DNA of 64,000 nucleotides from an uncultured Candidatus Saccharibacteria bacterium. GTDB lineage: Bacteria; Patescibacteriota; Saccharimonadia; Saccharimonadales; JACDBH01. A program made the translations under genes and the position numbers. Below, one piece after another: positions 1-61,346 of the stretch. Where the stretch lies: positions 3,216-67,215 of the forward strand of contig CAZBAF010000005.1 of assembly GCA_964490245.1 (NCBI GenBank), in the 5' to 3' direction. The notes under the pieces were generated by a model that was not told where the DNA came from, did not search any database, and was given only the letters and a program-made list of their open reading frames with translations. How positions within the stretch are numbered: the first letter of the stretch is position 1; each line of letters begins with the position of its first letter.

Positions 1-66
1 TATGTTTTTATCCGGACAGGTTCCCTCTCAGACCGTAACTTCAGGCCGGGCTTGCATGTACTATTT

Positions 67-80
67 TGGCTCCTCCCAGA
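67..80 (-). repeat. 14-nt copy of the tRNA-Phe 3' end
   Basis: tggctcctcccaga equals the T-stem/acceptor 3' end of the intact tRNA-Phe at 413-488. No other tRNA parts lie around it. Confidence 0.6.
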
Positions 81-238
81 ATACTCCTGCGCGCCGAGAA
101 ACTATTTTCTCGGGCTTAGGATATAGCCGTTTGGCCGGAAAACTGACCGGCCAAGCCGTTATTGAACCGCCGACAGGCAGCGGTTCAGGTTGGCAATAAC
201 GACCACGAAAAAACCCGCCACAGGGGCGGGTGCTTTCG

Positions 239-256
239 TGGTGGCTCCTCCCAGAC
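239..256 (-). repeat. 18-nt copy of the tRNA-Phe 3' end including CCA
   Basis: tggtggctcctcccagac is identical to 413-430. On the minus strand it is followed by a hairpin (cccgcc/ggcggg, 214-230) and a T-run, like the intact gene. Confidence 0.7.
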
Positions 257-380
257 AGCGGTCTTTGACCTTCTCCAGCCAAAAGGGTCGAAAGCAAGCT
301 TTCGCGTTCCTTTTGGCTTCCGCCGAACTGACCCGCCAATCGGCGGATCCCAGTTCGAGCCTGCAAAGATATCAGCCAAG
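257..380 (-). repeat. right-type structured tRNA-flank module (Phe locus)
   Basis: Read on the minus strand it has an anti-T-loop-like ggctcgaactggg, a ccgcc-gatt-ggcgg hairpin, a 9-bp gccaaaagg/ccttttggc stem, and ends gagaaggtc before the 3' fragment. The order of elements matches the module at 1597-1699. Confidence 0.45.
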
Positions 381-411
381 TAAAAACCCCACGCGCAGGT
401 GGGGGTTTTAC
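381..411 (-). terminator. rho-independent terminator after tRNA-Phe
   Basis: The minus strand reads aaaacccccac-ctgcgc-gtggggttttt directly after the CCA end. Confidence 0.7.
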
Positions 412-412
412 T

Positions 413-488
413 TGGTGGCTCCTCCCAGACTCGAACTGGGGACACAAGGCTCTTCAGGCCTCTGCTCTACCAACTGAGCTAAAGAGCC
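413..488 (-). tRNA. tRNA-Phe (anticodon GAA), CCA encoded
   Basis: The reverse complement ggctctttagctcagttggtagagcagaggcctgaagagccttgtgtccccagttcgagtctgggaggagccacca folds as a cloverleaf with anticodon loop CTGAAGA. Confidence 0.92.
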
Positions 489-620
489 GAATTTAATCGA
501 TCTATGAAGTTGATTGTAAATGCCCTCGTCGCGCTAAAGGCTCTAACGCTCGGTGTTAATAAATTGTAACACCTCGCTACCTTGTCAAGCCGTAAAGGCT
601 TGACCGGCGTCAGGCCATTA

Positions 621-644
621 CTCTACCAACTGAGCTAAAGAGCC
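621..644 (-). pseudogene. tRNA-Phe 5' fragment (acceptor 5' strand plus D-arm)
   Basis: ggctctttagctcagttggtagag is identical to the first 24 nt of the intact tRNA-Phe. It then diverges into 132 nt of hairpin-rich spacer. Confidence 0.7.
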
Positions 645-721
645 GCAAATTACGGATTAGCACGACGCCGCTTATTTTACTGCAGAACGGGGAATTTCTC
701 AAGGTGACTTTATGGGTACGG

Positions 722-1586: not shown

Positions 1587-1596
1587 ATGGTATGAT

Positions 1597-1699
1597 CCGG
1601 GGACTCGAACGGGAATGTCCAGTGGACATTCCCCGCCCTTGGCTTTTCGGCTGTGCTGAAAAGTTTCTGTAGCAAAAGTAAGTTTCTTTTGCGCAGGAA
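1597..1699 (+). repeat. right-type structured module V2 (103 nt)
   Basis: ggggactcgaac (complement of a T-loop), hairpin ggaatgtcc-agt-ggacattcc, hairpin cttttc-ggctgtgct-gaaaag, ending gcaggaag. Confidence 0.55.
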
Positions 1700-1723
1700 G
1701 GTCGAGTCCCTCACAACCCACCA
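1700..1723 (+). pseudogene. displaced tRNA-Val 3' part (T-loop to CCA)
   Basis: ggtcgagtccctcacaacccacca matches 1530-1553 of the intact gene at 23 of 24 positions. Confidence 0.75.
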
Positions 1724-1878: not shown

Positions 1879-2445
1879 ATGATGTGGTTACTTATTGTCG
1901 GCGGCGTTGTGTTGCTGCTGGTTATTATTTTTGCAGCAATGTACAACGGCCTGATCAGGCTGAATATTCGTGCCGACGAGGCCTGGAGTGACATAACCGT
2001 TCAGATGAAGCGCCGGCTTGACCTTATCCCAAACCTTATCGAAACAGTCAAGGGATACGCCAAGCACGAAAAGGGCGTGTTTGAAGAAGTTACCCAAGCC
2101 CGTACGGCGATTATGAATGCCCAGGGTCCTGCAGAAACGGGCCGGGCCGAGAACATGCTGGAAGGCGCACTAAAGAGCATTTTTGCAGTTGCCGAGGCAT
2201 ATCCTGATCTGAAGGCTGATGCCAACTTCCGTGATCTGCAAGCCGAGCTGGTTGATACTGAGAACAAAATCCAGGCCTCACGCCGGTTTTATAACGGTGT
2301 AGTACGCGACTTTAACACCAAGCGCCGGGTGTTCCCGACCAATATCTTTGCCAGCATGCTGGGCTTTAAAGCCGACCGCGAGTTCTTTGATGTTGAAGAT
2401 GGCGAACGCGAAGAAGTCAATAAGCCGGTATCGGTCAAATTTTAA
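1879..2445 (+). CDS. lemA: LemA family membrane protein
   Basis: An N-terminal TM helix is followed by YNGLIRL...EAWSDI...RRLDLIPNLIETVKGYAKHE, typical of LemA. Confidence 0.88.
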   Translation: MMWLLIVGGVVLLLVIIFAAMYNGLIRLNIRADEAWSDITVQMKRRLDLIPNLIETVKGYAKHEKGVFEEVTQARTAIMNAQGPAETGRAENMLEGALKSIFAVAEAYPDLKADANFRDLQAELVDTENKIQASRRFYNGVVRDFNTKRRVFPTNIFASMLGFKADREFFDVEDGEREEVNKPVSVKF

Positions 2446-2479
2446 AAGTGTATTTTGTATAGCGTATTACGTATAGCGT

Positions 2480-2854
2480 ATGACTAATCCAATTAACTCA
2501 TTTACGCAGTTGAGGACATGGCAAAAAGCACGCGATTTTGCAGTTGCAGTCTATAAAACTACAGCTGAGTTTCCTGCATCAGGAAAGTACGGGATGTCAT
2601 CACAGTTACGTCGCGCCACCGTTTCGGTTGCGGCAAACATAGCGGAAGGCTTCTCTCGTAACACCGCTAAAGAAAAGTTGAATTTTTATGGAATGAGCCT
2701 CGGTTCACTGACTGAAGTGCAGAGTCATCTATATATCGCACATGATCTTGGGTTTGTCAGCAAATCACAACTTGTGCTGCATATAGACGAGTCGGTAGCT
2801 ATACAGAAGATGATCAATGGTTTAAAGAAAAGTGCGAAAGGGAGAGATACGTAA
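2480..2854 (+). CDS. four-helix-bundle protein (23S rRNA intervening-sequence protein / Avd-like family)
   Basis: TWQKARDFAVAVYKTT..FP....YGMSSQLRRATVSVAANIAEGFSR..........GSLTEVQSHLYIA matches the family pattern. The gene is flanked by ~18-bp inverted repeats. Confidence 0.8.
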   Translation: MTNPINSFTQLRTWQKARDFAVAVYKTTAEFPASGKYGMSSQLRRATVSVAANIAEGFSRNTAKEKLNFYGMSLGSLTEVQSHLYIAHDLGFVSKSQLVLHIDESVAIQKMINGLKKSAKGRDT

Positions 2855-2881
2855 TACGGTATACGTACTACGAGATACGTT

Positions 2882-3763
2882 ATGTATAGTTCAATCACTG
2901 CCAACAAGCGCAAGACCGTCATTATTATGGCGTTCTTTGTGGTGCTGATTGGTGGGCTGGGATGGGTGTTTAGTCAGCTGTATGGCGGCGGGGCGCCCAG
3001 CGTGACGATTGGTGTGCTGATCGGTGCACTGATCTACACGCTGATCAGTTACTACAGTGCGTCAAAGATTGCGCTGGCGGTGAACGGTGCGCAAGAGATC
3101 CAACAAAAGGACAACCCGCGGCTGTACCGGATTGTTGAGAATATTGCCATCACCGAGGGCATGCCTATGCCGAAAGTGTACGTCATGCAGGATGCGGCGC
3201 CGAATGCATTTGCGACCGGCCGCGACCCCAATCATGCGGCTGTCTGTGCAACAACCGGCCTGCTGAAGATTATGGATGACAGCGAGCTGCAGGGCGTCAT
3301 GGCCCACGAGATGGGACATGTGAAGAATTATGATATCCGGGTCAGTATGATTGCCTTTGCTATGGTGGCAGTCATTGGTTTGCTGGCCGATATTCTGCTG
3401 CGCATGACGTTCTTCCGTGACCGCAACAGCAACAACAACCAGATTATGCTGCTGCTGGGTATCGCCGGGGCGATTTTGGCACCGATTGCTGCCATGCTGA
3501 TTCAGCTGGCAATATCGCGGCAGCGTGAATATCTGGCCGATGCCACCGGGGCGCTCAGTACGCGTTACCCAGAGGGGCTGGCCAGTGCGCTCGAAAAAAT
3601 CGGCCAGTACGGATCGGCACTCAAAAGTCACCAAAACTCCAGCACAGCCCATTTGTTTTTTGCCAATCCGCTGAAGGGCAAGAGTATTGCCGCACTGTTT
3701 AGTACCCATCCGCCCATAGAGGAGCGGGTTGCCCGTCTGCGTAGCATGGGGACAAAGGCGTAG
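2882..3763 (+). CDS. htpX: zinc metalloprotease HtpX (M48)
   Basis: HEMGH motif, four TM segments, and a C-terminal STHPPIEERV. Confidence 0.92.
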   Translation: MYSSITANKRKTVIIMAFFVVLIGGLGWVFSQLYGGGAPSVTIGVLIGALIYTLISYYSASKIALAVNGAQEIQQKDNPRLYRIVENIAITEGMPMPKVYVMQDAAPNAFATGRDPNHAAVCATTGLLKIMDDSELQGVMAHEMGHVKNYDIRVSMIAFAMVAVIGLLADILLRMTFFRDRNSNNNQIMLLLGIAGAILAPIAAMLIQLAISRQREYLADATGALSTRYPEGLASALEKIGQYGSALKSHQNSSTAHLFFANPLKGKSIAALFSTHPPIEERVARLRSMGTKA

Positions 3764-3770
3764 CAATCCG

Positions 3771-6739
<2,969 letters not shown>

Positions 6740-7511: not shown

Positions 7512-7543
7512 AGTAGTTTCAAACCGGGTTTGCTGCCACTGCA

Positions 7544-8839
7544 GTGGTATACTTAACGGTAATGAAGAATTTCTTAAAAGGTCTCGTTGTTGCCGTTCTG
7601 GGGTGGCAAGTCAGGCGTTTGCGCAAAAAACATCCCATCAAGGTGGTTGGCGTGGTGGGCAGTATCGGCAAAACCAGTACCAAGCTGGCAATTGCCCAGA
7701 CTTTGGGCAAAACCTTGCGGGTGCGGTATCAGGAGGGGAATTATAACGATATTGTCACGGTGCCGCTGATCTTTTTTGGCCAGGAGGCACCGAGTCTGTT
7801 CAATCCATTAGCGTGGCTGAAGGTATTTATCAGTAACCAAAAGCAAATCCGGTCGTATCCGTACGACGTGGTGGTGGTAGAGCTTGGAACAGACGGGCCG
7901 GGGCAGATTGCGGCTTTTGGCAAATATCTGCAGCTGGACATTGCCGTCGTAACCGCAGTCACCCCCGAACATATGGAGTTTTTCGCTGACTTGCAGGCGG
8001 TAGCGGACGAGGAGCTGTCTGTAGCGGCGTATAGCAACCGTGTAATATACAACGCCGATCTGGTCGCCGAAAATTTCCGTACTGCACTGCCCGAGGGTTC
8101 TTTGTCGTACAGCCTCAATACAGCCGGCAGTGATTTTTACCTGGCTAATACGTTTCATTCAGCCGCAGGGTATGAGGGCGATATAAAGCATGGCGGCGAA
8201 ATCTATCTGCATGTCAGCCACGAGGTGGTGTCAAAAGTTCAGTTGTATTCGTTGCTGGCGGCGGTGGTGGTCGGCAAGGAGCTGGGGCTTAAGAACGTGC
8301 AGATTGCCGCCGGACTGGCTGCAATCCGGCCGGTCAGCGGACGGTTTAGGCGTTTGCGCGGTATTAACGGCAGTATGATTATCGATGATACCTATAACTC
8401 CAGTCCTGAGGCGGTCAAAGCCGGTCTGACAACATTATACGAGCTGGATACGCCGCAGCGTATTGCGATCTTAGGCAGCATGAACGAGCTGGGGGCGCTC
8501 TCGCCTGCTGCCCATAAAGAGGTCGGCGAATTTTGTGATCCTGACAAGCTGGCCCTGGTTGCAACCATCGGTACGGAGGCCAACACTTATCTGGCACCTG
8601 CGGCCGAAGCCAAAGGCTGCAGCGTTAAGAAGTTTGATGATCCGCATGCGGCTGGCGAATACATACAAAGCAAGGTAGAGGCAGGGGCGGTGATTTTTGC
8701 AAAAGGGTCGCAAAATGGCGTATTCGCTGAAGAGGCAGTCAAAAAACTGCTGGCCGATCCTGAAGACGCCGGCAAGCTCGTCCGCCAATCGGACTATTGG
8801 CTGGCACAGAAAGCGAAACAATTTAAACGGAAGGTGTAA
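7544..8839 (+). CDS. murF: Mur ligase, MurF-like (UDP-MurNAc-tripeptide--D-Ala-D-Ala ligase)
   Basis: GVVGSIGKTSTK P-loop and a Mur ligase central and C-terminal layout. It is adjacent to ddl. Confidence 0.78.
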   Translation: MVYLTVMKNFLKGLVVAVLGWQVRRLRKKHPIKVVGVVGSIGKTSTKLAIAQTLGKTLRVRYQEGNYNDIVTVPLIFFGQEAPSLFNPLAWLKVFISNQKQIRSYPYDVVVVELGTDGPGQIAAFGKYLQLDIAVVTAVTPEHMEFFADLQAVADEELSVAAYSNRVIYNADLVAENFRTALPEGSLSYSLNTAGSDFYLANTFHSAAGYEGDIKHGGEIYLHVSHEVVSKVQLYSLLAAVVVGKELGLKNVQIAAGLAAIRPVSGRFRRLRGINGSMIIDDTYNSSPEAVKAGLTTLYELDTPQRIAILGSMNELGALSPAAHKEVGEFCDPDKLALVATIGTEANTYLAPAAEAKGCSVKKFDDPHAAGEYIQSKVEAGAVIFAKGSQNGVFAEEAVKKLLADPEDAGKLVRQSDYWLAQKAKQFKRKV

Positions 8840-22364: not shown

Positions 22365-23951
22365 CTATTTATTCTTCTCTTGGCGGTTGAGGCGGTAGTG
22401 GTAAGTGGGGTAGCGTGAGCCTAATGTAAATGGATTGATGTATACATTTACCCGCGGCATTACGGCAAGCATTTTTGCTTCTAGCTGTTTTGTCCACGCT
22501 TGCCGCTGGCCGCGGTTTTTTGGCAGCAAGTCTACCCGCAGCGGTTTCGAGAGGATTGCCATTATCGCCGAGACAGTCCATGCCTGAATACGCTCTGGTT
22601 TGTTGGTGCTATTGACTTCTATAACATTCCCGTGGGAATGCTTAACTGGTTGCTTGGTGAGAACCCGGCCGTTTTTGTCCACGAACACAAATTCTTGGTA
22701 ATGCCGGCTCTTGAGGAACACGTTCAATAGGCGGCTCTCCAGTTGTGCCGCCAGCTTTGGAAAGCCCTGGCGTCTTAAACCTTTGGCGATGTCGTATGTT
22801 TCTTTGGGCCAAGATACGAAGGATCCATGATAATCCCAGTGGCCAACAAGATCTGCGGCTTCCAATGAGCGGCTGCGGATACCTGCACGGGTAAGAAAGT
22901 TACTACTTAGTATGTGCTCCACAATTCCCGTAACATACAGCTTCTTGTCTTTTTGGGGCAGACCGTCAAAGAAACCAGTATCCAAGAGTGCGGCCGGGTT
23001 GGCGGTAGTGGTCTGGATAATGCGTAGCTTTCCGTCTGGTCCATAATCGGTACCGAGTGCAAAGTAATTAGCTTCGGGTTGCCAAAGCAATTCTATCGTC
23101 CGGTCACGGACTTTTTGCGCGGCGGCCTGGTAATCTTCTGCTTTTTCGGGGAACAATTTAGCTGCGGTTTGCAGGGCATCGTATGTCAGGCCCTGCACCT
23201 CGATTGATGCGATAGGTGCGTTGTGATTCACGGGCTGTTTATCGGCGTGGATGTAGAATTCGTCAGAATCTTTCCATACTTGATTGAGTATGCTGTGCGG
23301 GTTTTGGTGTTGGAACTCTAATAAGCCAGAACGGGATTCTGCAAGGCGGGAGAAAAGCCAATCTACCGAAGCTTGGGCGGCTTCGGCCATGGTGTAGCCC
23401 ATTCCGTCGTAGCGGATGACAAGGCTTTGCAAGATACGCTTACCGTATAAGTCTACATAACAGCCAAGTGTTCTTAGGAATTGCGGTGTGGCATCAATGG
23501 ATCCGTAGTATCTTAGCTCGTCGTCGGTGCCGCCCCATTTGTCGCTGAGCTCTTTGAATATTTTGCGAGAGGCGTCATTGATTGGCTTTTTATCTACCAA
23601 AGTAGTACGGTATTCGTGGATTATTTTTCCTGGTTCTTCCTCGTTATCTTTGCGGTTTTCGGCTCCTTGCAAACTGGCAAGCGTCATAAGGATATTGCGG
23701 GCCAGCCGCGGTTTGATCCGCATAAGATCCTCGGCAACTTCTAGCGAGTCGCGGCCAAAAACTGCTCCTTTGTACAAAATATCAGAGCTAGCATAGACGC
23801 CTAGACCGGACTTAGAAGTGACACTCCGAAGGGCAAGGGTAGGTATAACTAACGCATTCTCTGGCTGTGTTAAGCCGGCAATAATCGCTTTGACCATAAG
23901 GGCATTATACCTCTCTAAAGTTTTTGTAAAAGTTAAACGGGGCTCTACCAA
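22365..23951 (-). CDS. amylo-alpha-1,6-glucosidase / glycogen-debranching-type (alpha/alpha)6 hydrolase
   Basis: GKIIHEYR...YYGSIDATPQFL pattern. The start is either TTG at 23951 or ATG at 23897. Confidence 0.7.
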   Translation of the reverse strand: MVEPRLTFTKTLERYNALMVKAIIAGLTQPENALVIPTLALRSVTSKSGLGVYASSDILYKGAVFGRDSLEVAEDLMRIKPRLARNILMTLASLQGAENRKDNEEEPGKIIHEYRTTLVDKKPINDASRKIFKELSDKWGGTDDELRYYGSIDATPQFLRTLGCYVDLYGKRILQSLVIRYDGMGYTMAEAAQASVDWLFSRLAESRSGLLEFQHQNPHSILNQVWKDSDEFYIHADKQPVNHNAPIASIEVQGLTYDALQTAAKLFPEKAEDYQAAAQKVRDRTIELLWQPEANYFALGTDYGPDGKLRIIQTTTANPAALLDTGFFDGLPQKDKKLYVTGIVEHILSSNFLTRAGIRSRSLEAADLVGHWDYHGSFVSWPKETYDIAKGLRRQGFPKLAAQLESRLLNVFLKSRHYQEFVFVDKNGRVLTKQPVKHSHGNVIEVNSTNKPERIQAWTVSAIMAILSKPLRVDLLPKNRGQRQAWTKQLEAKMLAVMPRVNVYINPFTLGSRYPTYHYRLNRQEKNK

Positions 23952-23994
23952 GAAACGCCGTTATCTGTTAAAATAGGGCAGTTCCAAAAAATAC

Positions 23995-24142
23995 TGGGGA
24001 TTGGCCATTCGCTGGCTAGCGAAGGTAAGGCAACGGTGAGAACTGCCAGTGGCAGTTTGGAAACGAACCTTCTCTTGAGAACTTGTTTTCAAAGTTGAAG
24101 TTCGGGGGTCGCGGAACGTGACTCTAGGTCCCGTGATCGGGG
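23995..24142 (+). pseudogene. mosaic tRNA-Gln 5' part: three exact tRNA pieces separated by insertions in the D-loop and anticodon loop
   Basis: Pieces 23995-24007, 24024-24036 and 24127-24142 are identical to the intact tRNA-Gln. A 16-nt hairpin (24008-24023) replaces agt, and a 90-nt module (24037-24126) replaces gttct of the anticodon loop. Confidence 0.75.
24037..24126 (+). repeat. structured module I2 (90 nt) in the anticodon-loop position
   Basis: It starts tgagaactgccagtggcagtt and has a long hairpin at 24064-24104 and a small hairpin gtcgcg-gaa-cgtgac. It is a paralogue of 24143-24262. Confidence 0.6.
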
Positions 24143-24262
24143 AGAGACATGCCACTGGCATGTCGCAAGGACATCAACTCTTGAGAACTATGTTCTCAAA
24201 GATGTTGTGTCGGGGTCGCAGGATGTGACGGCGGAACGTCGGTCGAATCCGGGTTCGAACCC
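24143..24262 (+). repeat. left-type structured module I3 (120 nt) in the T-loop position
   Basis: agagacatgccactggcatgtcgcaagg, a long hairpin at 24171-24210, gtcgca-gga-tgtgac, and a terminal ggtcgaa-tccggg-ttcgaacc. It is collinear with 1331-1452. Confidence 0.6.
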
Positions 24263-24289
24263 TTTGTATGTTAAAATCAGAGTAATTAT

Positions 24290-24363
24290 TGGGGATTGGC
24301 CAAGTGGTAAGGCAACGGGTTCTGGTCCCGTGATCGGGGGTTCGAATCCCTCATCCCCAGCCA
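24290..24363 (+). tRNA. tRNA-Gln (anticodon CTG), CCA encoded
   Basis: tggggattggccaagtggtaaggcaacgggttctggtcccgtgatcgggggttcgaatccctcatccccagcca. Confidence 0.9.
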
Positions 24364-24381
24364 AGCATAAGCACTATGAAA
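24358..24381 (+). repeat. 24-bp direct repeat DR1 (tRNA-Gln 3' end plus flank)
   Basis: cagccaagcataagcactatgaaa is identical to 26625-26648. Both copies are followed by a gacttc/gaagtc-type hairpin. Confidence 0.85.
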
Positions 24382-24406
24382 GACTTCCATCAGAGAAGTC
24401 TTTTTG
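24381..24406 (+). terminator. terminator hairpin after tRNA-Gln
   Basis: agacttc-catcaga-gaagtct-tttt. Confidence 0.7.
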
Positions 24407-24423
24407 TTTGTTATGATAATCCT

Positions 24424-24903
24424 ATGTCTTATTCTCAAAAATATTGTTTAGTCTCATTTATTAACCCAATTGGTACTAATACCGAGTTTGATATGACTGA
24501 TTGGCCATTACACGTTACATTGGCTGATGTGTTTGCAATAGATCTTCGCAAAACCAAAATTGAAGCTAAGCTAGAAAAACTATTATCAAGCCATCATCCA
24601 ATTAAAACGCTTGCAGGTATTGAAGCTACTCTAGGAACCACGGAAGTAATCTTGTTAGATAAAACCAAGGAGCTTGATGCTCTACATTCTAGTACGGTTG
24701 ATCTACTTGAGGATAACGGTGCACAATTTAATACTCCGGAATTCACAAGAGGGGGATTTGTGCCTCATTGCACCATTCAGAAGGTGGAGAGGCTACTTAT
24801 GGGTGATGAAGTGATTATTAGAAACATAGCACTCGTTGATATGTTCCCTAATGAAAATTGGCAGCAAAGAAAGATCATTAACATATTCAGATTACAGGAT
24901 TAG
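24424..24903 (+). CDS. 2H phosphoesterase superfamily protein (LigT / 2'-5' RNA ligase-like)
   Basis: Two H-x-T-x motifs (LHVTL and PHCTI) lie about 85 aa apart. The start is moved to the ATG at 24424, past the terminator hairpin. The sequence is AT-rich. Confidence 0.65.
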   Translation: MSYSQKYCLVSFINPIGTNTEFDMTDWPLHVTLADVFAIDLRKTKIEAKLEKLLSSHHPIKTLAGIEATLGTTEVILLDKTKELDALHSSTVDLLEDNGAQFNTPEFTRGGFVPHCTIQKVERLLMGDEVIIRNIALVDMFPNENWQQRKIINIFRLQD

Positions 24904-24949
24904 GCTTAAACTCTGTGATATAGATAGAGTTGCGAAGTACGTCACGTAA

Positions 24950-25012
24950 CCCCAGCCAGCAGCAAATTGAACTAATAGGTTCGAATGAAAGACTTCTTCG
25001 GAAGTCTTTTTT
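24950..25012 (+). repeat. middle att-like unit: ccccagcca (tRNA-Gln end) plus ggttcgaat plus terminator hairpin
   Basis: ccccagcca at 24950-24958, then atgaaagacttc-ttcg-gaagtcttttt, which resembles the segment after DR1. Confidence 0.6.
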
Positions 25013-25042
25013 ATTTGATTGACATAGGTTACATTACTTCAT

Positions 25043-26584
25043 ATGCCCTCTCTCTACATTAATCAGCAAACTGAAGCCGAGAAGGACGATTACTTATTCG
25101 ATTGCTTTCACGACACAGGCGTCATTTCGGAATTGGTTCATTCAAGGTATACAATTTTGGCAGGCCGTAAAGGCATGGGAAAATCAGCAGTCGCAAGATA
25201 TCTTGAAAAGAATGCTGAAAAATACGATCTTGATTTTGTTTTCAAGTTATCGATCCGCAATTTTAACATAAAGCGGTTTGATACTGAAAAGAACACTCTT
25301 GACTCTATTCTGTACTATGTAGTGGTCAAGTCTATACAGAAAATGCTTAATGTTAATTATTTTTCTAATGAAGCAGCCAAATACTGGAAGGACTTTTTAC
25401 TAGATAATGGCCTACAGCAGCTAGCCGATTATGAATCTTTTGTGACCACAAAAAAATCCCGAAAAACTGGGTTTTCTATAAAAGCAGTAGCTTCCTACCT
25501 ATTTGCTAAAGGCGAAGGCAGCACAAAGTTGAATTTCGAAACTGAAAAGCAACGTGCCGAAATTGCCGACTCACCATCTTCTCTATTTGATTCTCTTCGA
25601 CAGAGTATTAATCCTAAACATAAAGTAATCATTTTTATTGATGATATTAGCGATTACCTAGACGAATCTGACAGAAACGTATTATTAAAAGATCTTGCTA
25701 TCATTCAAAACCTTCTATTAAATTTGCAAACCTATAACCTTAATTTTGCAGAGGAGGAGCTGAATCTTCGTTTTGTATCATTGGTTAGAGACGACATCTT
25801 TGAGTACATGGAAGGCTCGAATGTAAATAAATTAAAAACGGATAGCTTGAAACTTGTTTGGGATGAAAAGGCTTTTGCAAGTTTGCTTATTCGACGAATG
25901 CCCTATTTTGCCGACAAGCTAGATGAGGCGCTTGAAAACCCAGTGACTTCACTTAAGGAACGTTTTCCCGATGATATATTTACGGACTTCCTAAAGTCAT
26001 TCTCGACAAACCGATACGGCAGTAACTTCTATGCATACATGGCGGCAATATCATTCAACAGACCCCGTGATTTCCTTCAGTTTTGCTATGCGTTGCGTAA
26101 TCGTTTAAGTTTACGCCACCCTGCAACATTTGAGAACATTGATGCCGCAGAAATCGAATATTCCAATTATTTTATACAGGAACTGCGTGACGAACTATAC
26201 GTAGCTAGCAGGGTTTTTGATTATGACTTTAGTCAGGAGCGCATCGATCACTTAGTAGATATATTGAGTAAGAATGACATGTTTAACTCATCCCAATTAA
26301 AAACAGATCTCTCTGCCTTTATAGGCACAAAGACCAGCATCGGAAATAAAAAAATTGAAGCCTTACTCGCAGAGTTGTGGAGATACGGGGTAATAGGTGT
26401 TTCCGAAAAACCTACTAAATCTATAAAGCCAGCCAAAAAGACTACTCCCGAGAAAACAGAAAAATTAATACTTTTTAAGTATTTATCTGATTCAGCGGTC
26501 TTCACATCAGAGAAAATAAAAAACTACACATTTTACCTACATCGAGGCTTGTGGTGGTTTGCTAAAAAGAGACGAAACGATTAA
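25043..26584 (+). CDS. P-loop NTPase, uncharacterised (513 aa)
   Basis: Walker A GRKGMGKS, Walker B-like VIIFIDDISD, a later RPRD motif, and a long helical C-terminal region. The sequence is AT-rich. Confidence 0.7.
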   Translation: MPSLYINQQTEAEKDDYLFDCFHDTGVISELVHSRYTILAGRKGMGKSAVARYLEKNAEKYDLDFVFKLSIRNFNIKRFDTEKNTLDSILYYVVVKSIQKMLNVNYFSNEAAKYWKDFLLDNGLQQLADYESFVTTKKSRKTGFSIKAVASYLFAKGEGSTKLNFETEKQRAEIADSPSSLFDSLRQSINPKHKVIIFIDDISDYLDESDRNVLLKDLAIIQNLLLNLQTYNLNFAEEELNLRFVSLVRDDIFEYMEGSNVNKLKTDSLKLVWDEKAFASLLIRRMPYFADKLDEALENPVTSLKERFPDDIFTDFLKSFSTNRYGSNFYAYMAAISFNRPRDFLQFCYALRNRLSLRHPATFENIDAAEIEYSNYFIQELRDELYVASRVFDYDFSQERIDHLVDILSKNDMFNSSQLKTDLSAFIGTKTSIGNKKIEALLAELWRYGVIGVSEKPTKSIKPAKKTTPEKTEKLILFKYLSDSAVFTSEKIKNYTFYLHRGLWWFAKKRRND

Positions 26585-26624
26585 GCCAGACTTAAAACTT
26601 GGTTCTAATATTGTCGCTGATGCT

Positions 26625-26648
26625 CAGCCAAGCATAAGCACTATGAAA
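26625..26648 (+). repeat. 24-bp direct repeat DR2
   Basis: Identical to 24358-24381. It is followed by a degenerate hairpin aaaaactt-ttccgg-aagtcttt. Confidence 0.85.
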
Positions 26649-26711
26649 AACTTTTCCGGAAGTCTTTCATTTTATGCTTGTTTATAAAATTATAAATTCT
26701 AGTATGTCGGT

Positions 26712-27119
26712 ATGAGGCCGAGTGTGACCCAGAAGCTGGATTATGGATGTGGTGTTGCCTGCTTTGCCTTTATCTGTGATATGACATTTGAGCAGGCGGT
26801 AGAGTTCTTGGGTAAAGAGTATAGCGTTAAGCATGGCTGGCGCCCAAGTGATCTAGTGATTAAATTGAATGAAAGAGGCTATAAATACAAGAACCGCTAT
26901 GTTCGCAAAAAACCAAACATTACTTTTCCTATCGGAACCATCGTTTTAATTGAGAGGTCAGCAAAGTATCCTGTCGGGCACTACTTGGCTTTGGGCGAAG
27001 GTGGCTGGATGGACCCTTGGATTAATTTGCCTATTTCGAATAATTTATCATTTGCAAAATCAGGGTTTAGGGAAAAACTTCCGGGCAAGGCTATATACGC
27101 CCTTATACCAATTCCATAG
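26712..27119 (+). CDS. papain-fold cysteine peptidase-like protein (C39-like)
   Basis: Q-x5-GCGVAC (oxyanion Gln plus catalytic Cys context), then GHYLAL and a later DPW, which is the order seen in C39-type peptidases. 135 aa. Confidence 0.5.
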   Translation: MRPSVTQKLDYGCGVACFAFICDMTFEQAVEFLGKEYSVKHGWRPSDLVIKLNERGYKYKNRYVRKKPNITFPIGTIVLIERSAKYPVGHYLALGEGGWMDPWINLPISNNLSFAKSGFREKLPGKAIYALIPIP

Positions 27120-27240
27120 CTGAAAGTTGCGAAGTACGTCTACTAAGGGCGGCCAAGTTAAGTGCCCGCTTTCGAGCGGGCTTTTAACTTGGTGCGGATC
27201 AAAGAGCAAGCTGCTTTGCCTTTAGGGTTTCGGCTCGTAA

Positions 27241-27265
27241 GTCGAATCCCCTTATCCGGTGCCGC
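27241..27265 (+). pseudogene. possible degenerate tRNA-Gln 3' part (T-loop to acceptor)
   Basis: gtcgaatccccttatccggtgccg against gttcgaatccc-tcatccccagcca gives a 9-mer plus 8 of 13 matches. It is preceded by a gcaagctgctttgc hairpin like the module hairpins, and it overlaps the last codons of the FMN reductase gene. Confidence 0.3.
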
Positions 27266-27833
27266 GTAGCCTGCGGGTCCATACGCCGAGCGCTCGCATG
27301 AGTTCACTGATTCTTTCCAGGGTAGGCTCGTCGGCCAGTTTGCCGTTATCCATCTTTTCGTGCACGGATGACACCATAACTTCCGGCTTGTTGAGGAGGT
27401 GAACGTTGAGCGATACGCAGACTTGCCGCAGTATGTACTGGGCCCTTGCGCCACCGAACATGCCTGGCGAGGCGCTCATGATAGCACCGGGCTTGTCATC
27501 AAGACTATTGTCTCCGGCGGGCCGGCTTGCCCAATCGAGAACGTTTTTTAAAAAGCCGGGGATTGCATAGTTGTATTCGGGCGTTACGATGAGGATGGCG
27601 CCGGCTGACTGTATCTTTTGTTTAAAATCCTTGACTGCGCTTGGCATTTCCTGTTCCAGTTCCTGGTTGTATAAGGGGAAATCGCCAATCTTGTCATAGA
27701 TTTCTAAAGACATGTCGTCGGGACAGATGTCGGATGATGCCTGAAGTAAGCAGCTTGTCTCTAGCAGGGTTTGATTAAAGGACTCTTCCCGCAAACTGCC
27801 GCCAAACCCTAAAATACGCACCACATCATTCAT
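27252..27833 (-). CDS. NAD(P)H-dependent FMN reductase family oxidoreductase
   Basis: ILGFGGSLREESFN...ILIVTPEYNYAIPGFLKNVLDWASRP. Confidence 0.85.
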   Translation of the reverse strand: MNDVVRILGFGGSLREESFNQTLLETSCLLQASSDICPDDMSLEIYDKIGDFPLYNQELEQEMPSAVKDFKQKIQSAGAILIVTPEYNYAIPGFLKNVLDWASRPAGDNSLDDKPGAIMSASPGMFGGARAQYILRQVCVSLNVHLLNKPEVMVSSVHEKMDNGKLADEPTLERISELMRALGVWTRRLRGTG

Positions 27834-41154: not shown

Positions 41155-41271
41155 AACACCCCCTAGTTTATGCTTATGGTTGAGCCCATTATCTGGCTTT
41201 GCTTTTGGTAAGTCAATGACGTTTGTGTTTTTACGTCCGCTTCGTTATAGTGAAAGTGCTTAACAACCTAA

Positions 41272-41384
41272 ATATCAAGAGTGCAGCGAGAGTCCTAGCT
41301 CTGTGACCTGCCAGCAACCTGCTTAATAAGGCGAAGCCGTAAGTAAGGTGCTTCATCTAGCCGCCTGTATGGGTGGAAAGATAT
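41272..41384 (+). promoter_or_regulatory. SAM riboswitch (SAM-I clan) upstream of metK
   Basis: aUAUCAAGAG...GAGAG...GCAACC...AAGGUGC...aaGAUAU, with P1 pairing auauc/gauau. The downstream hairpin tatcctttc/gaaaggata plus T-run (41394-41429) covers the RBS. Confidence 0.65.
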
Positions 41385-41429
41385 GTTTTCTCGTATCCTT
41401 TCAGCTATATAGGCAGAAAGGATATTTTT

Positions 41430-42419
41430 ATGTCAAAACCAATTTACAGAACTGCAGAGTCGGTAAGTCCAAGGCACCCGGACAAAATCTGCGATCAACT
41501 ATCGGATGCGATTTTGGACGCATACCTGGCAGAAGATCCTGATGCGCGTGTGGCTGTCGAGGCTGTCGGCGGACACGGCAAAGTATTTGTGACGGGTGAG
41601 GTGACTAGCATTGCACATCCGAACATAGAGCCCATCATCAAGCGCATCGCAGGCGAGAATATTGAAGCAGAAGTGCGGTTGGTCAGGCAGAGTCCGGAGA
41701 TTGCGCAGGGCGTTGACATAGGCGGCGCTGGCGACCAAGGCATAATGGTAGGCTATGCTACGGATGAGACTCCGGAACTTTTGCCGCTTGAAGTTGTGCT
41801 AAGTAGAAAACTCAACCAACACCTTTACAGTATCTGGCCGCATGACGGCAAAACGCAGGTAACGCTCAAGAATGGCATTATCCAATCGGCTGTTGCCAGC
41901 TTTCAGCACGCGTCAGGACGTGAGCTGAGGAAAGCGGTTGCCAGGTGGCTAGAGGAAAACGGGTATGACCCCGGCAACGTTGAAATACACGCCAACCCGG
42001 CGGGCGATTGGCAGCAGGGCGGGTTTGACGCTGATACTGGCCTGACTGGACGTAAACTGGTGGTTGATAATTATGGTCCCCGGGTCCCAATTGGGGGTGG
42101 CTGTTTCAGCGGCAAAGACCCGAGCAAAGTCGACCGTTCGGCAGCCTACATGGCGCGTAAGGTTGCGGTAGATTACTTGAAAAAGCATGACGCCAAAGAA
42201 GTCTTTGTATACCTTGCCTATGCCATCGGCTACGCCCAGCCGCTTGAGGCGACGGTCATTATTGACGGCAGGCACGAAGAAATCAAGGGCTATGATTTGA
42301 CGCCGCGCGGGATAATCCAGGCCCTGGAACTGAGGCGCCCGATTTACGAACAGACTGCCAGGTACGGGCATTTTGGGCACGCCGGGTTACCGTGGGAGGA
42401 TGCTATACTCAAAGCATGA
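41430..42419 (+). CDS. metK: S-adenosylmethionine synthetase (short, 329 aa)
   Basis: [22 protein letters not shown]...[12 protein letters not shown]...[19 protein letters not shown]. Confidence 0.9.
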
Positions 42420-60317: not shown

Positions 60318-61346
60318 ATGAGTTACCAGAACCAAGACATAGCCCGCGTGGCGGGGGAGCTGAAAGGCAAACTTGACACGCTTGATGACAAGCGGGCAAT
60401 TATGCGCGACCCGGCACTGAAAGGTCTGTTCGAGCAAATCAAGACCCTGCCGCCAGAGCAGCGCGGCGCTTTCGGTAAAGAAGTAAACCAGCTTCGCCAG
60501 GAGCTGCAGCAGCTGGTGGCGAGCTCGCAGGCTGCATTAGAGATATTGCCGCCGATTGACATAACCGCGCCGTTTGACGCCAACGTACCTGCCGATAAGC
60601 GGCCGGCGTTCTTTCCGGTTGACCAGGCCAGCCTGCATCCGTTAACACAAGAGATTGCCCGGATAACGGACATTTTCTGCCGCATGGGTTTTACGGTCGA
60701 AGAGTCGCGCGAAATCGACGACGATTTCCACATGTTCGAAAGCCTCAACTTCCCAGAGGGGCATCCCGCCCGGGACGATTGGGATACTTTCATGACTGAC
60801 GAGGGGCTTATTGCACCCGCGCACACCAGCACCATGCAGAACCGCGTGCTGCAAAAATACAAGCCAAACTTAGAGAATGGCGAACCGATAGCTGTAGTGG
60901 TGCCGGACCGCGTGTTCCGTAACGAAGATCTGGACGCCACGCATGAGCACACGTTCTACCAGGTGGAAGGCGTTTTTGTGGGCAGGGGTGTGAATGTGGG
61001 GAACCTGATTGCGACATTGCGGGCGTACATGAGCGAGTTCTTTGGCCAGGAGCTTAATGTCAAAATCCAGCCGTTTTACTTCCCCTTTACCGAACCAAGT
61101 TTTGAATTTGCCGTAGAGCGGCCCGATGCACTTAAAAAGGACGATTCAGAAGAGCAGAAGTGGTTAGAGATCGGCGGCTGCGGCATGATTCATCCCAACG
61201 TATTAAAGATGGCTGACATTGACCCGACAGTGTACACCGGCTTTGCCTGGGGTTTTGGGGTCGAGCGTATGGTGATGCTGCGTAATGGCATCGAGGATAT
61301 CCGCCATTTCGAGAGCGCCAATCTAAAGTTTTTGAGGCAGTTTTAA
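60318..61346 (+). CDS. pheS: phenylalanine--tRNA ligase alpha subunit
   Basis: Class II aaRS motifs (...FRNEDLDATHEHTFYQVEG..., GFAWGFGVERM). TGaTATAAT at 60300-60308 lies only ~10 nt before the ATG. Confidence 0.94.
   Translation: MSYQNQDIARVAGELKGKLDTLDDKRAIMRDPALKGLFEQIKTLPPEQRGAFGKEVNQLRQELQQLVASSQAALEILPPIDITAPFDANVPADKRPAFFPVDQASLHPLTQEIARITDIFCRMGFTVEESREIDDDFHMFESLNFPEGHPARDDWDTFMTDEGLIAPAHTSTMQNRVLQKYKPNLENGEPIAVVVPDRVFRNEDLDATHEHTFYQVEGVFVGRGVNVGNLIATLRAYMSEFFGQELNVKIQPFYFPFTEPSFEFAVERPDALKKDDSEEQKWLEIGGCGMIHPNVLKMADIDPTVYTGFAWGFGVERMVMLRNGIEDIRHFESANLKFLRQF

Follow-up and report, generated by a model that had tools for sequence, protein, structure and literature searches.

The subject of this study is a 64-kb stretch of chromosomal DNA (the window) from a Candidatus Saccharibacteria bacterium, a member of the Patescibacteria or Candidate Phyla Radiation (CPR), and in particular the DNA between its intact tRNA-Gln(CTG) gene and a gene for an NADPH-dependent FMN reductase. 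An initial annotation had tentatively taken positions 24143 to 27265 as one cargo-bearing version of an element found at the tRNA-Val gene of the same window. On balance, we consider the region to be an integration hot spot at tRNA-Gln that was built by several separate events and not by a single element. It seems to be a familiar tRNA insertion hot spot in an unusually small, integrase-free form. The pieces of the array, their orientation, their similarity to one another and their base composition can be read directly from the DNA and are described first.

Maximum-likelihood change points in G+C content fall at 24366 and 27146, with a G+C content of 0.38 inside versus 0.52 for the window. They mark an AT-rich block of 2.78 kb (24364-27146) that extends from the 3′ end of the intact tRNA-Gln to the last of four junctions, termed boundaries a, b, c and d, within 24364-27192; the outermost fragment, at 27241-27264, is termed e. 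The tRNA with the inserted module I3 on its left (24143-24363) and the DNA at 27147-27240 have normal G+C. The drop in G+C described in the initial annotation is thus real, but the low G+C starts at the 3′ end of the intact tRNA and not at 24143, and it ends about 95 nt to the left of e. The three AT-rich single-gene cassettes reported in this segment are present as described.

All features given here for the array lie on the + strand. Boundary a (24364-24410) consists of the tRNA 3′ flank agcataagcactatgaaa and a terminator hairpin (24378-24404), and contains the left change point. It is followed by open reading frame (ORF) 1 (24424-24903, G+C 0.37), which encodes a member of the 2H phosphoesterase/2′-5′ RNA ligase superfamily (PF13563, E = 3.9e-10). 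Boundary b (24928-25015) is composed of the 16-mer AGTTGCGAAGTACGTC, the sequence aaccccagcca (24948-24958), which matches the 3′ end of tRNA-Gln at 10 of 11 positions, the motif ggttcgaat and a terminator (24987-25010). ORF2 (25043-26584, G+C 0.375) encodes an Sll1717-family P-loop ATPase (NF047389, 169 bits; phrog_13260; AAA_16 weakly). Boundary c (26601-26675) is a copy of tRNA-Gln from the T-loop to the 3′ end, ggttctaat-attg-tcgctgatgctcagcca, with the flank agccaagcataagcactatgaaa and a terminator; the tRNA copy takes up about 30 nt (26601-26630), and the flank after it is identical to that of boundary a at 23 of 23 positions. ORF3 (26712-27119, G+C 0.43) encodes a 135-aa protein of a family without known function, with 231 representative proteins at E <= 0.001; it has no match in Pfam, NCBIfam, PHROG or PADLOC. 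Boundary d (27125-27192) contains the same 16-mer AGTTGCGAAGTACGTC, then ..gggcggcca and a G+C-rich terminator (27164-27181), and it includes the right change point.

The boundaries are related to tRNA-Gln and to each other. Compared with the 3′ part of tRNA-Gln plus its flank, boundary c scores 61 and boundary b scores 34 (p < 0.0005 for both); the tRNA-only piece of b gives p = 0.006. The copies of the tRNA-Gln 3′ part measure 11 nt in b, about 30 nt plus flank in c and 24 nt in e, and all three have the orientation of tRNA-Gln. A terminator hairpin follows three of the four boundaries downstream of a, namely b, c and d but not e. Boundaries a and c are 88% identical over 40 nt, through the terminator, and b and d share an exact match of 16 nt within 31 nt at 77% identity. 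The ORF1 and ORF3 cassettes consequently have both ends in common, a with c on the left and b with d on the right, around unrelated genes. Because both ends are shared, these two units are, as judged from their boundaries, one cassette family with different cargo. In viral contigs, the 16-mer of b and d and a 16-mer of the left arm gave only chance matches in unrelated coding DNA. No integrase or recombinase domain was detected in the products of ORF1 to ORF3 with Pfam, NCBIfam, PHROGs or PADLOC, and PADLOC gave no defence-system match for the three proteins.

We also examined the outermost fragment, which the initial annotation had described as a displaced 3′ part of tRNA-Gln. A Smith-Waterman scan of the window with the 3′ 26-mer of tRNA-Gln as query found fragment e, gtcgaatccccttatccggtgccg, with a score of 20 (local p ~0.009); it is 24 nt long and ends at 27264, one position before the end given previously. 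Compared with the tRNA-Gln 3′ part, with or without flank, it gives p = 0.002-0.007. It would represent a decayed copy from G|T55 to the 3′ end. Its start matches tRNA-Gln exactly (GTCGAATCC), and the tail of 13-14 nt after TCGAATCCC matches at 8 of 13 positions with one indel (p ~0.03), as weak as the initial annotation had stated; the corresponding fragment at tRNA-Val matches at 23 of 23. The T-loop variant shared with the Val fragment, also pointed out before, proved informative. The motif GTCGARTCC occurs four times in the window, always on the + strand, against 0.46 expected, and none of 100 shuffles reached four. The copies form two pairs that match their tRNAs, GTCGAGTCC at 1430 and 1701 on either side of tRNA-Val and GTCGAATCC at 24242 and 27241 on either side of tRNA-Gln. 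Fragment e starts G|TCGA after a purine-rich lead-in, as do fragments at Val and in two loci from other genomes or metagenomes (L020 and L021; the labels L001 to L038 denote such fetched relative contigs). Two further similarities to Val did not survive inspection. The lead-in is actually ..cgtaa|g, the supposed ..aag having counted the g twice, and the hairpin gcaagctgctttgc, which had been likened to gcaagctgtgcttgc, is not significantly similar to it (Val left arm versus 27120-27270, p = 0.41).

Fragment e overlaps the end of the FMN reductase gene (27252-27833, - strand; PF03358, E = 1e-36), as had been noticed. The last four codons of this gene and its stop (TAA, 27252-27254) are read from the complement of e. 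The conserved domain is avoided, since the Pfam match covers residues 6-158 of 193. DNA homology to the closest relative of the gene (L001) stops at 27268, 3 nt from the end of e, and the sequences are unrelated beyond it; the protein ends in RRLRGTG* in the window versus RRLQQ* in L001. Relatives with the same 3′ end of the gene and without tRNA-Gln, which would speak against a tRNA origin of this end, were not seen. Because GTCGARTCC occurs in tRNA-matched pairs and the homology to L001 breaks at this point, fragment e is probably real, although decayed. It is the outermost and probably the oldest displaced fragment, and it may have been displaced from the dead tRNA-Gln copy described below or from the lineage of the live copy. 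The comparison with L001 supports the assignment of the DNA up to ~27264 to the tRNA-Gln locus and not to the ancestral FMN reductase gene.

Between d and e lies a spacer of 48 nt (27193-27240) with normal G+C, ending in ..tttcggctcgtaa. This end resembles the ends of other modules and of I3 (15 of 19 positions). An exact 14-nt repeat, CTGCTTTGCCTTTA, is found in ORF3 (26759-26772) and in the spacer (27211-27224); about 0.02 repeats of this type are expected in 3.5 kb. In L001 the gene downstream of FMN reductase is tRNA-Trp(CCA) (1677-1791) and not tRNA-Gln, and its terminator, atgaaagacttcctcggaagtctttt, is almost identical to that of boundary b. Two other identities were considered for this end of the array. 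As a decayed whole tRNA, 27193-27264 gave no match to the Rfam tRNA model at E <= 5 and only partial acceptor pairing by hand. As a remnant of tRNA-Trp, fragment e aligned slightly worse than with tRNA-Gln (8 versus 10).

On the other side of the array, the intact tRNA-Gln(CTG) gene (24290-24363; ARAGORN; Rfam tRNA, 61.7 bits) directly follows a dead copy that occupies 23996-24250. The 5′ part of the dead copy extends to G52 (23996-24142) and matches the intact gene at 23996-24008, 24025-24036 and 24127-24142. It is interrupted by I1 (24009-24024), a 16-nt palindrome in the D-loop, TTCGCTGGCTAGCGAA, which stands in place of AGT, and by I2 (24037-24124) in the anticodon stem. I3 (24143-24231), in the T-arm, is a second 88-nt module of the same type with three hairpins. 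Behind it stands cg|GTCGAATCC, in which G|GTCGAATCC (24241-24250) is what remains of the dead gene's T-loop, and then at once a palindromic T-arm-like tail, GGGTTCGAACCC (24251-24262, p = 0.002); remainder and tail together span 24241-24262. An AT-rich spacer (24263-24289) with the motif tgttaaaat is the likely promoter of the intact gene. It resembles the stretch 5′ of the dead copy, and the same motif stands 5′ of tRNAs in L021 and L004; a promoter consensus scan did not flag it at 24263-24289.

I2 and I3 belong to a family of I-modules of ~88 nt with three hairpins, whose other members are an insert at tRNA-Val (1331-1432) and a copy in L031. Among these four copies, compensatory changes affect 16 of the 32 predicted pairs. 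A covariance model of the module (R2) was run, together with one of the Val-type right arm (R1), over 234 kb of fetched loci; R2 matched I2 with 95.6 bits and I3 with 103.6 bits, and found just its four founding copies. No Rfam match at E <= 5 was obtained for I-modules, right arms or boundaries in 23900-27400 and 1-1900. Because I3 has its own T-loop remainder at 24242 and the module in L031 sits in a tRNA-Gln-like gene, I3 is, from its position in both loci, a self-contained insertion inside the old tRNA-Gln rather than a 3-kb element's left arm. If fragment e has a partner, this would be the 9-mer at 24242. Group I introns have been described in tRNAs of Patescibacteria (PMC13011429), and I-modules are likewise structured insertions in tRNA genes of the same phylum. 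We rejected this identity: the modules are, with 88 nt, too small, they lie in the T-arm or anticodon stem instead of the anticodon loop, they lack an Rfam match, and they occur in dead-looking copies beside an intact one.

The right arm of the Val-type element was characterized from relatives. A metagenome scan with its hairpin identified L020 (tRNA-Val) and L021 (tRNA-Arg, with tRNA-His in the same locus), and L004 (tRNA-Gln) carries the same right arm. These conserved arms of other Saccharibacteria are ~110 nt long and lie downstream of their tRNAs (L020 1032-1270; L021 4290-4403 and 3671-3772; L004 9536-9649). After the tRNA and its terminator comes an inverted copy of the tRNA's own T-arm and 3′ part, then a hairpin centred on CCAGTGG and another two hairpins. 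The arm closes with a purine-rich lead-in and a repeat of the tRNA in direct orientation; behind Val and Arg this direct copy begins at T55 (G|TCGA..), behind His it begins as G|TCCC, and in L004 it is decayed. Inverted and direct copies can pair over 9-13 bp; the outer stem is built from T-arm sequence of the adjoining tRNA itself. In the first hairpin the stem covaries and the CCAGTGG centre is kept. The arm has no Rfam match, and the viral-contig scan gave 0 exact copies of its hairpin. Inverted T-arm copies stand at the starts of right arms and directly after the T-loop remainders of both dead genes (1439-1450 and 24251-24262). Because L020 and L021 have no upstream 5′ tRNA fragment, the right arm is, as these loci present it, a unit on its own that can enter alone, and not half of a composite.

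Such a right arm had been predicted for 27120-27240. R1 found the four relatives and window 1591-1713 only, and with its filters off it scored nothing in 27120-27265. Pairwise comparisons of the arms with 27120-27270 gave p values of 0.15-0.66, apart from one terminator-to-terminator match of a Phe arm (p = 0.04). The spacer at 27193-27240 contains no inverted T-arm copy and no CCAGTGG hairpin, and neither R1 nor R2 matches it. The right arm of the Val-type element, with its inverted T-arm copy, CCAGTGG hairpin and further hairpins, was thus not found at the tRNA-Gln locus of the window. The initial annotation had named a blank right-arm score as grounds against its proposal; because R1 was blank and the pairwise similarities were at chance, the reading as the same element with cargo fails its own test.

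Homologues of ORF2 provide independent information on one of the cassettes. They occur in other contigs at 91, 86, 84, 83, 81 and 80% identity, compared with best matches of 61-79% for the neighbouring housekeeping genes, and further relatives are named as other Patescibacteria lineages. The contig with the 91% homologue (L031) begins in an I3-like module, followed by ggccgaatccatccgtcccagtca, a whole tRNA-Gln-like 3′ part from T-loop to 3′ end (17 of 24 positions) and, after 170 AT-rich nt, the ORF2 homologue. In L036 (83%) the homologue follows tRNA-Gly(GCC), its terminator and a 22-nt inverted tRNA copy. This copy corresponds to tRNA-Gly positions of about 40-60 and directly precedes the gene; a duplicated 21-nt 5′ fragment of tRNA-Gly lies 105 nt upstream of that tRNA (L036 2480-2810). 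In L035 (80%) the homologue stands between two decayed pieces resembling the tRNA-Gln 3′ part, with no intact tRNA, and in L033 (81%) it lies in a TIR/VbhA-Fic cluster beside a tRNA-Asn, behind which 13 nt of that tRNA's T-loop region are repeated. In L032 (84%; 2353-3684 and 4270-4350) the surroundings of the homologue are phage-like and include a terminase, a ParB-methylase and a large serine recombinase. A nearby non-coding stretch of L032 reads ggtatcgaatttcc|agacactggcatgtcagtg, like the junction at the start of I3, gatcgggg|agagacatgccactggcatgtcg. ORF2 is, to judge by these contexts, horizontally mobile and moves independently.

Elements that integrate into tRNA genes bring along their own version of the gene's 3′ part; the gene is restored with it, and the old 3′ part and its flank are displaced outward (PMC4383910). 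At the tRNA-Gln locus, each unit would have entered by site-specific recombination with the then-functional tRNA-Gln, with the crossover in the T-loop (c and e) or in the final 9-17 nt of that gene (b and d). Each would have contributed a terminator of its own together with a new 3′ end, and would have shifted the old 3′ end and flank outward. Because the standard mechanism for islands in tRNA genes (tDNA islands) leaves the newest unit nearest the gene, a gene-less mini-unit (terminator d plus 27193-27240, with 27147-27240 as the unit) would have arrived first, leaving e; the ORF3 cassette would have followed, leaving d, then the ORF2 unit, leaving c, and finally the ORF1 cassette, leaving b. 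With serial stages, a displaced piece would carry the flank and terminator of the previous stage. An excised cassette would form a circle with a junction such as ..agttgcgaagtacgtcacgtaa-ccccagcca-agcataagcactatgaaa.. Since none of the three cassette genes is a recombinase gene, the enzyme would have to act in trans.

Several results weigh against this serial accretion. Fragment e has degenerated, and its score of 20 is equalled at one unrelated site of the window (60731). Boundary d alone is not significantly tRNA-like and resembles only b. Terminators of the same family (atgaaagacttc..gaagtcttt) are also present behind tRNA-Trp in L001 and behind tRNA-Asn in L007, so part of the similarity of a, b and c could be generic tRNA 3′ flank. 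An ORF2 homologue in L038 (74%) follows a ribosomal protein operon with no tRNA, and ORF2 is therefore not always linked to a tRNA. Among ~70 ORFs of the window, 10 further ones of integrase-like size gave no recombinase by Pfam (nine are housekeeping genes and one has no family), and a phmmer search with the large serine recombinase of L032 against all window ORFs gave no match. No empty site or intermediate allele was found in L001, L002, L004-L007 or L022-L024, and none of these keeps both flanks: L001 retains the short-chain dehydrogenase/reductase (SDR) and FMN reductase genes with tRNA-Trp there, L004 has the GH-like gene and tRNA-Gln with other DNA downstream, L022 and L024 lack synteny, and relatives of the flanking genes are in general too distant or not syntenic. 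We infer the order of events, and likewise that recombination was site-specific and that a recombinase acted in trans.

Some of these results can be explained in other ways. Fragment e could be a chance match or an oddity of the FMN reductase 3′ end, with the foreign DNA ending at d (27146) and the dead copy being a decayed tandem duplication of promoter and tRNA-Gln with module insertions. The position of the compositional edge at 27146 instead of 27241, the equal score at 60731, the tail match of only 8/13, the variable C-terminal tails among 16 aligned FMN reductase homologues and the similarity of the promoter-like stretches 5′ of both tRNA-Gln copies would all agree with this. We nevertheless find it doubtful, given that GTCGARTCC occurs only beside Val and Gln and in a form matched to each tRNA, that the G|TCGA start and purine-rich lead-in recur in L020, L021 and the Val fragments, and that the L001 homology breaks 3 nt from the end of e. 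Homologous or illegitimate recombination in a variable intergenic region might also have brought in the cassettes, the repeats being a common post-tRNA terminator module. The occurrence of the terminator family after other tRNAs, the absence of a recombinase among the ORFs tested and the non-tRNA site in L038 are in line with such an origin, which is nonetheless quite unlikely: boundary c copies the tRNA-Gln-specific 3′ part from the T-loop on, beyond the terminator, in b the sequence ccccagcca precedes the terminator, the cassettes of ORF1 and ORF3 have a second end in common that is not a terminator (the 16-mer), and all pieces are oriented as the tRNA.

A single 3.1-kb element, composed of I3 as left arm, a replacement tRNA-Gln, three cargo genes and a degenerate right arm, would have entered by one T-loop insertion, with the old 5′ part ending at 24142 and the old 3′ part starting at 27241. 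In both dead copies, Val and Gln, the 5′ part does end at G52 of the T-stem, followed by a left arm starting (t/a)gaga..CCA(G/C)TGG that R2 recognizes at Val (1331-1432) and Gln (24143-24231); a G|TCGAATCC fragment stands at the far end, and the FMN reductase homology ends just beyond it. Against these points are the blank R1 score and chance-level arm similarities, the T-loop remainder of I3 itself and the whole tRNA-Gln-like 3′ part after the L031 module, the extent of low G+C from 24366 to 27146, the inner boundaries, two of them with tRNA 3′ copies, the independent occurrence of ORF2 beside other tRNAs, and the right arms without a left arm in L020 and L021. We regard a single element as improbable to a high degree, and serial accretion at tRNA-Gln remains the interpretation that we favor.

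Serial accretion resembles known systems in several respects. The Islander criteria for tDNA islands comprise an intact tRNA gene with a cognate fragment in the same orientation, an integrase inside, a length of 2-200 kb, a fragment that lies off any conserved coding domain, and an uninterrupted site in a relative (PMC4383910). As in such islands, an intact tRNA gene (24290-24363) marks one end, displaced 3′ fragments of the same tRNA (b, c and e) lie farther out and in its orientation, the DNA between is of foreign composition, the gene would be restored by incoming DNA, units are stacked at one tDNA as in a tandem array, and the crossovers of this locus would lie in the T-loop or near the 3′ end. 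Unlike them, the block carries three genes with no integrase on board; the units, of about 0.1, 0.5, 0.6 and 1.7 kb, hold one gene or none and fall below the 2-kb filter (the whole block, at 2.8-2.9 kb, is above it); each unit has its own terminator; two units have the same ends and different cargo; and the host is a CPR bacterium. Crossovers in the T-loop and near the 3′ end are known for tyrosine integrases (PMC4383910, citing Williams 2002) and form recognized sublocation classes.

Integron cassettes likewise form a row of single-gene units in one orientation with repeated boundaries, same ends around different cargo and no recombinase within. In contrast to integrons, no IntI gene, attI or Pc promoter was seen (locus flanks and, by Pfam, the 10 further window ORFs), the boundaries combine a tRNA 3′ copy with a terminator and, by eye, are not imperfect inverted repeats of the attC type, and the array has a tRNA gene as its anchor. 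Integrase-less mobilisable islets (cis-mobilisable, of the mobilisable genomic island type) are DNA flanked by attachment (att) sites that borrows the integrase of a helper. The present units are comparable in being att-flanked, without their own recombinase and presumably moved in trans; they differ in being much smaller, with no helper or matching integrase identified and no sign of present-day mobility.

A wider proposal is put forward as a tentative possibility, namely that Saccharibacteria and other Patescibacteria have a tRNA-anchored cassette system moved in trans by one unlinked recombinase acting at the T-loop or 3′ end. Its parts may be single-gene units that share attachment sequences derived from tRNA 3′ ends, such as the ORF1 and ORF3 cassettes; gene-less mini-units, which may be the conserved right arms with an outer stem from the neighbouring tRNA's T-arm; and the 88-nt three-hairpin module, which may land inside tRNA genes. 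Such a system would be a functional analogue of the integron with tRNA genes as attachment site.

The window contains four tRNAs, Phe, Val, Ala and Gln(CTG), as determined with ARAGORN and Rfam, and the other three loci have features of their own. At tRNA-Val (1278-1722), a dead 5′ part to G52 is followed by an I-module (1331-1432) and by GGTCGAGTCC with an inverted copy of the T-arm directly behind it (1439-1450). Next are a spacer resembling a promoter, tRNA-Val in its intact form, its terminator, a canonical right arm (1591-1713) and a 3′ fragment that matches perfectly over 23 nt. Where its I-module ends (ccgggcccgccggaggtgg|gtcgag), the sequence shares 91% identity with the end of the L020 right-arm region. 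The tRNA-Phe locus (window 1-720, - strand) is decorated in the same way: a 24-nt 5′ fragment (644-621) is followed after 132 nt by the intact gene (488-413) and a terminator, then by an arm whose first part is an inverted T-arm copy and whose last part is a 17-nt 3′ fragment (258-242); beyond this arm lie another terminator, a further arm and a 14-nt fragment (84-71). A sub-threshold Rfam tRNA match of 18.6 bits is located at 538-644 (- strand). After tRNA-Ala, at 7512-7560, the palindrome gctgccactgcagtggta contains CCACTG/CAGTGG as in the module hairpins, with no tRNA fragments nearby. The array at tRNA-Gln is flanked by the GH-like gene and tRNA-Gln on one side and by the FMN reductase and SDR genes on the other (Pfam). 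The GH-like protein (528 aa), to the left, has its best named relatives in Saccharibacteria metagenome-assembled genomes at 54-61% identity and no relative above 63%; the FMN reductase, to the right, has one relative at 79% (L001) and an identical copy in a second assembly (L003). Elsewhere in the window, an S-adenosylmethionine riboswitch (RF00162, 54.7 bits) at 41269-41387 lies directly 5′ of the S-adenosylmethionine synthetase gene (41373-42419).

For annotation, the locus illustrates that a gene can take its last codons from a tRNA fragment next to it and that dead, module-interrupted tRNA copies can adjoin live ones. Three families that are not in Rfam emerge from it: the right arms, the 88-nt I-module with its strong covariation, and the shared ends of the ORF1 and ORF3 cassettes. 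These uncatalogued families would offer handles for finding the recombinase and for tracing the movement of accessory genes among Patescibacteria, for example the Sll1717-type ATPase and the 2H phosphoesterase, or the TIR and Fic genes that neighbour ORF2 homologues. If our interpretation is correct, tRNA genes would serve as hot spots of integration even in CPR bacteria, whose genomes are very small, through units far below the islands found by standard tools, with one gene or none, no integrase and a size under the 2-kb filter.

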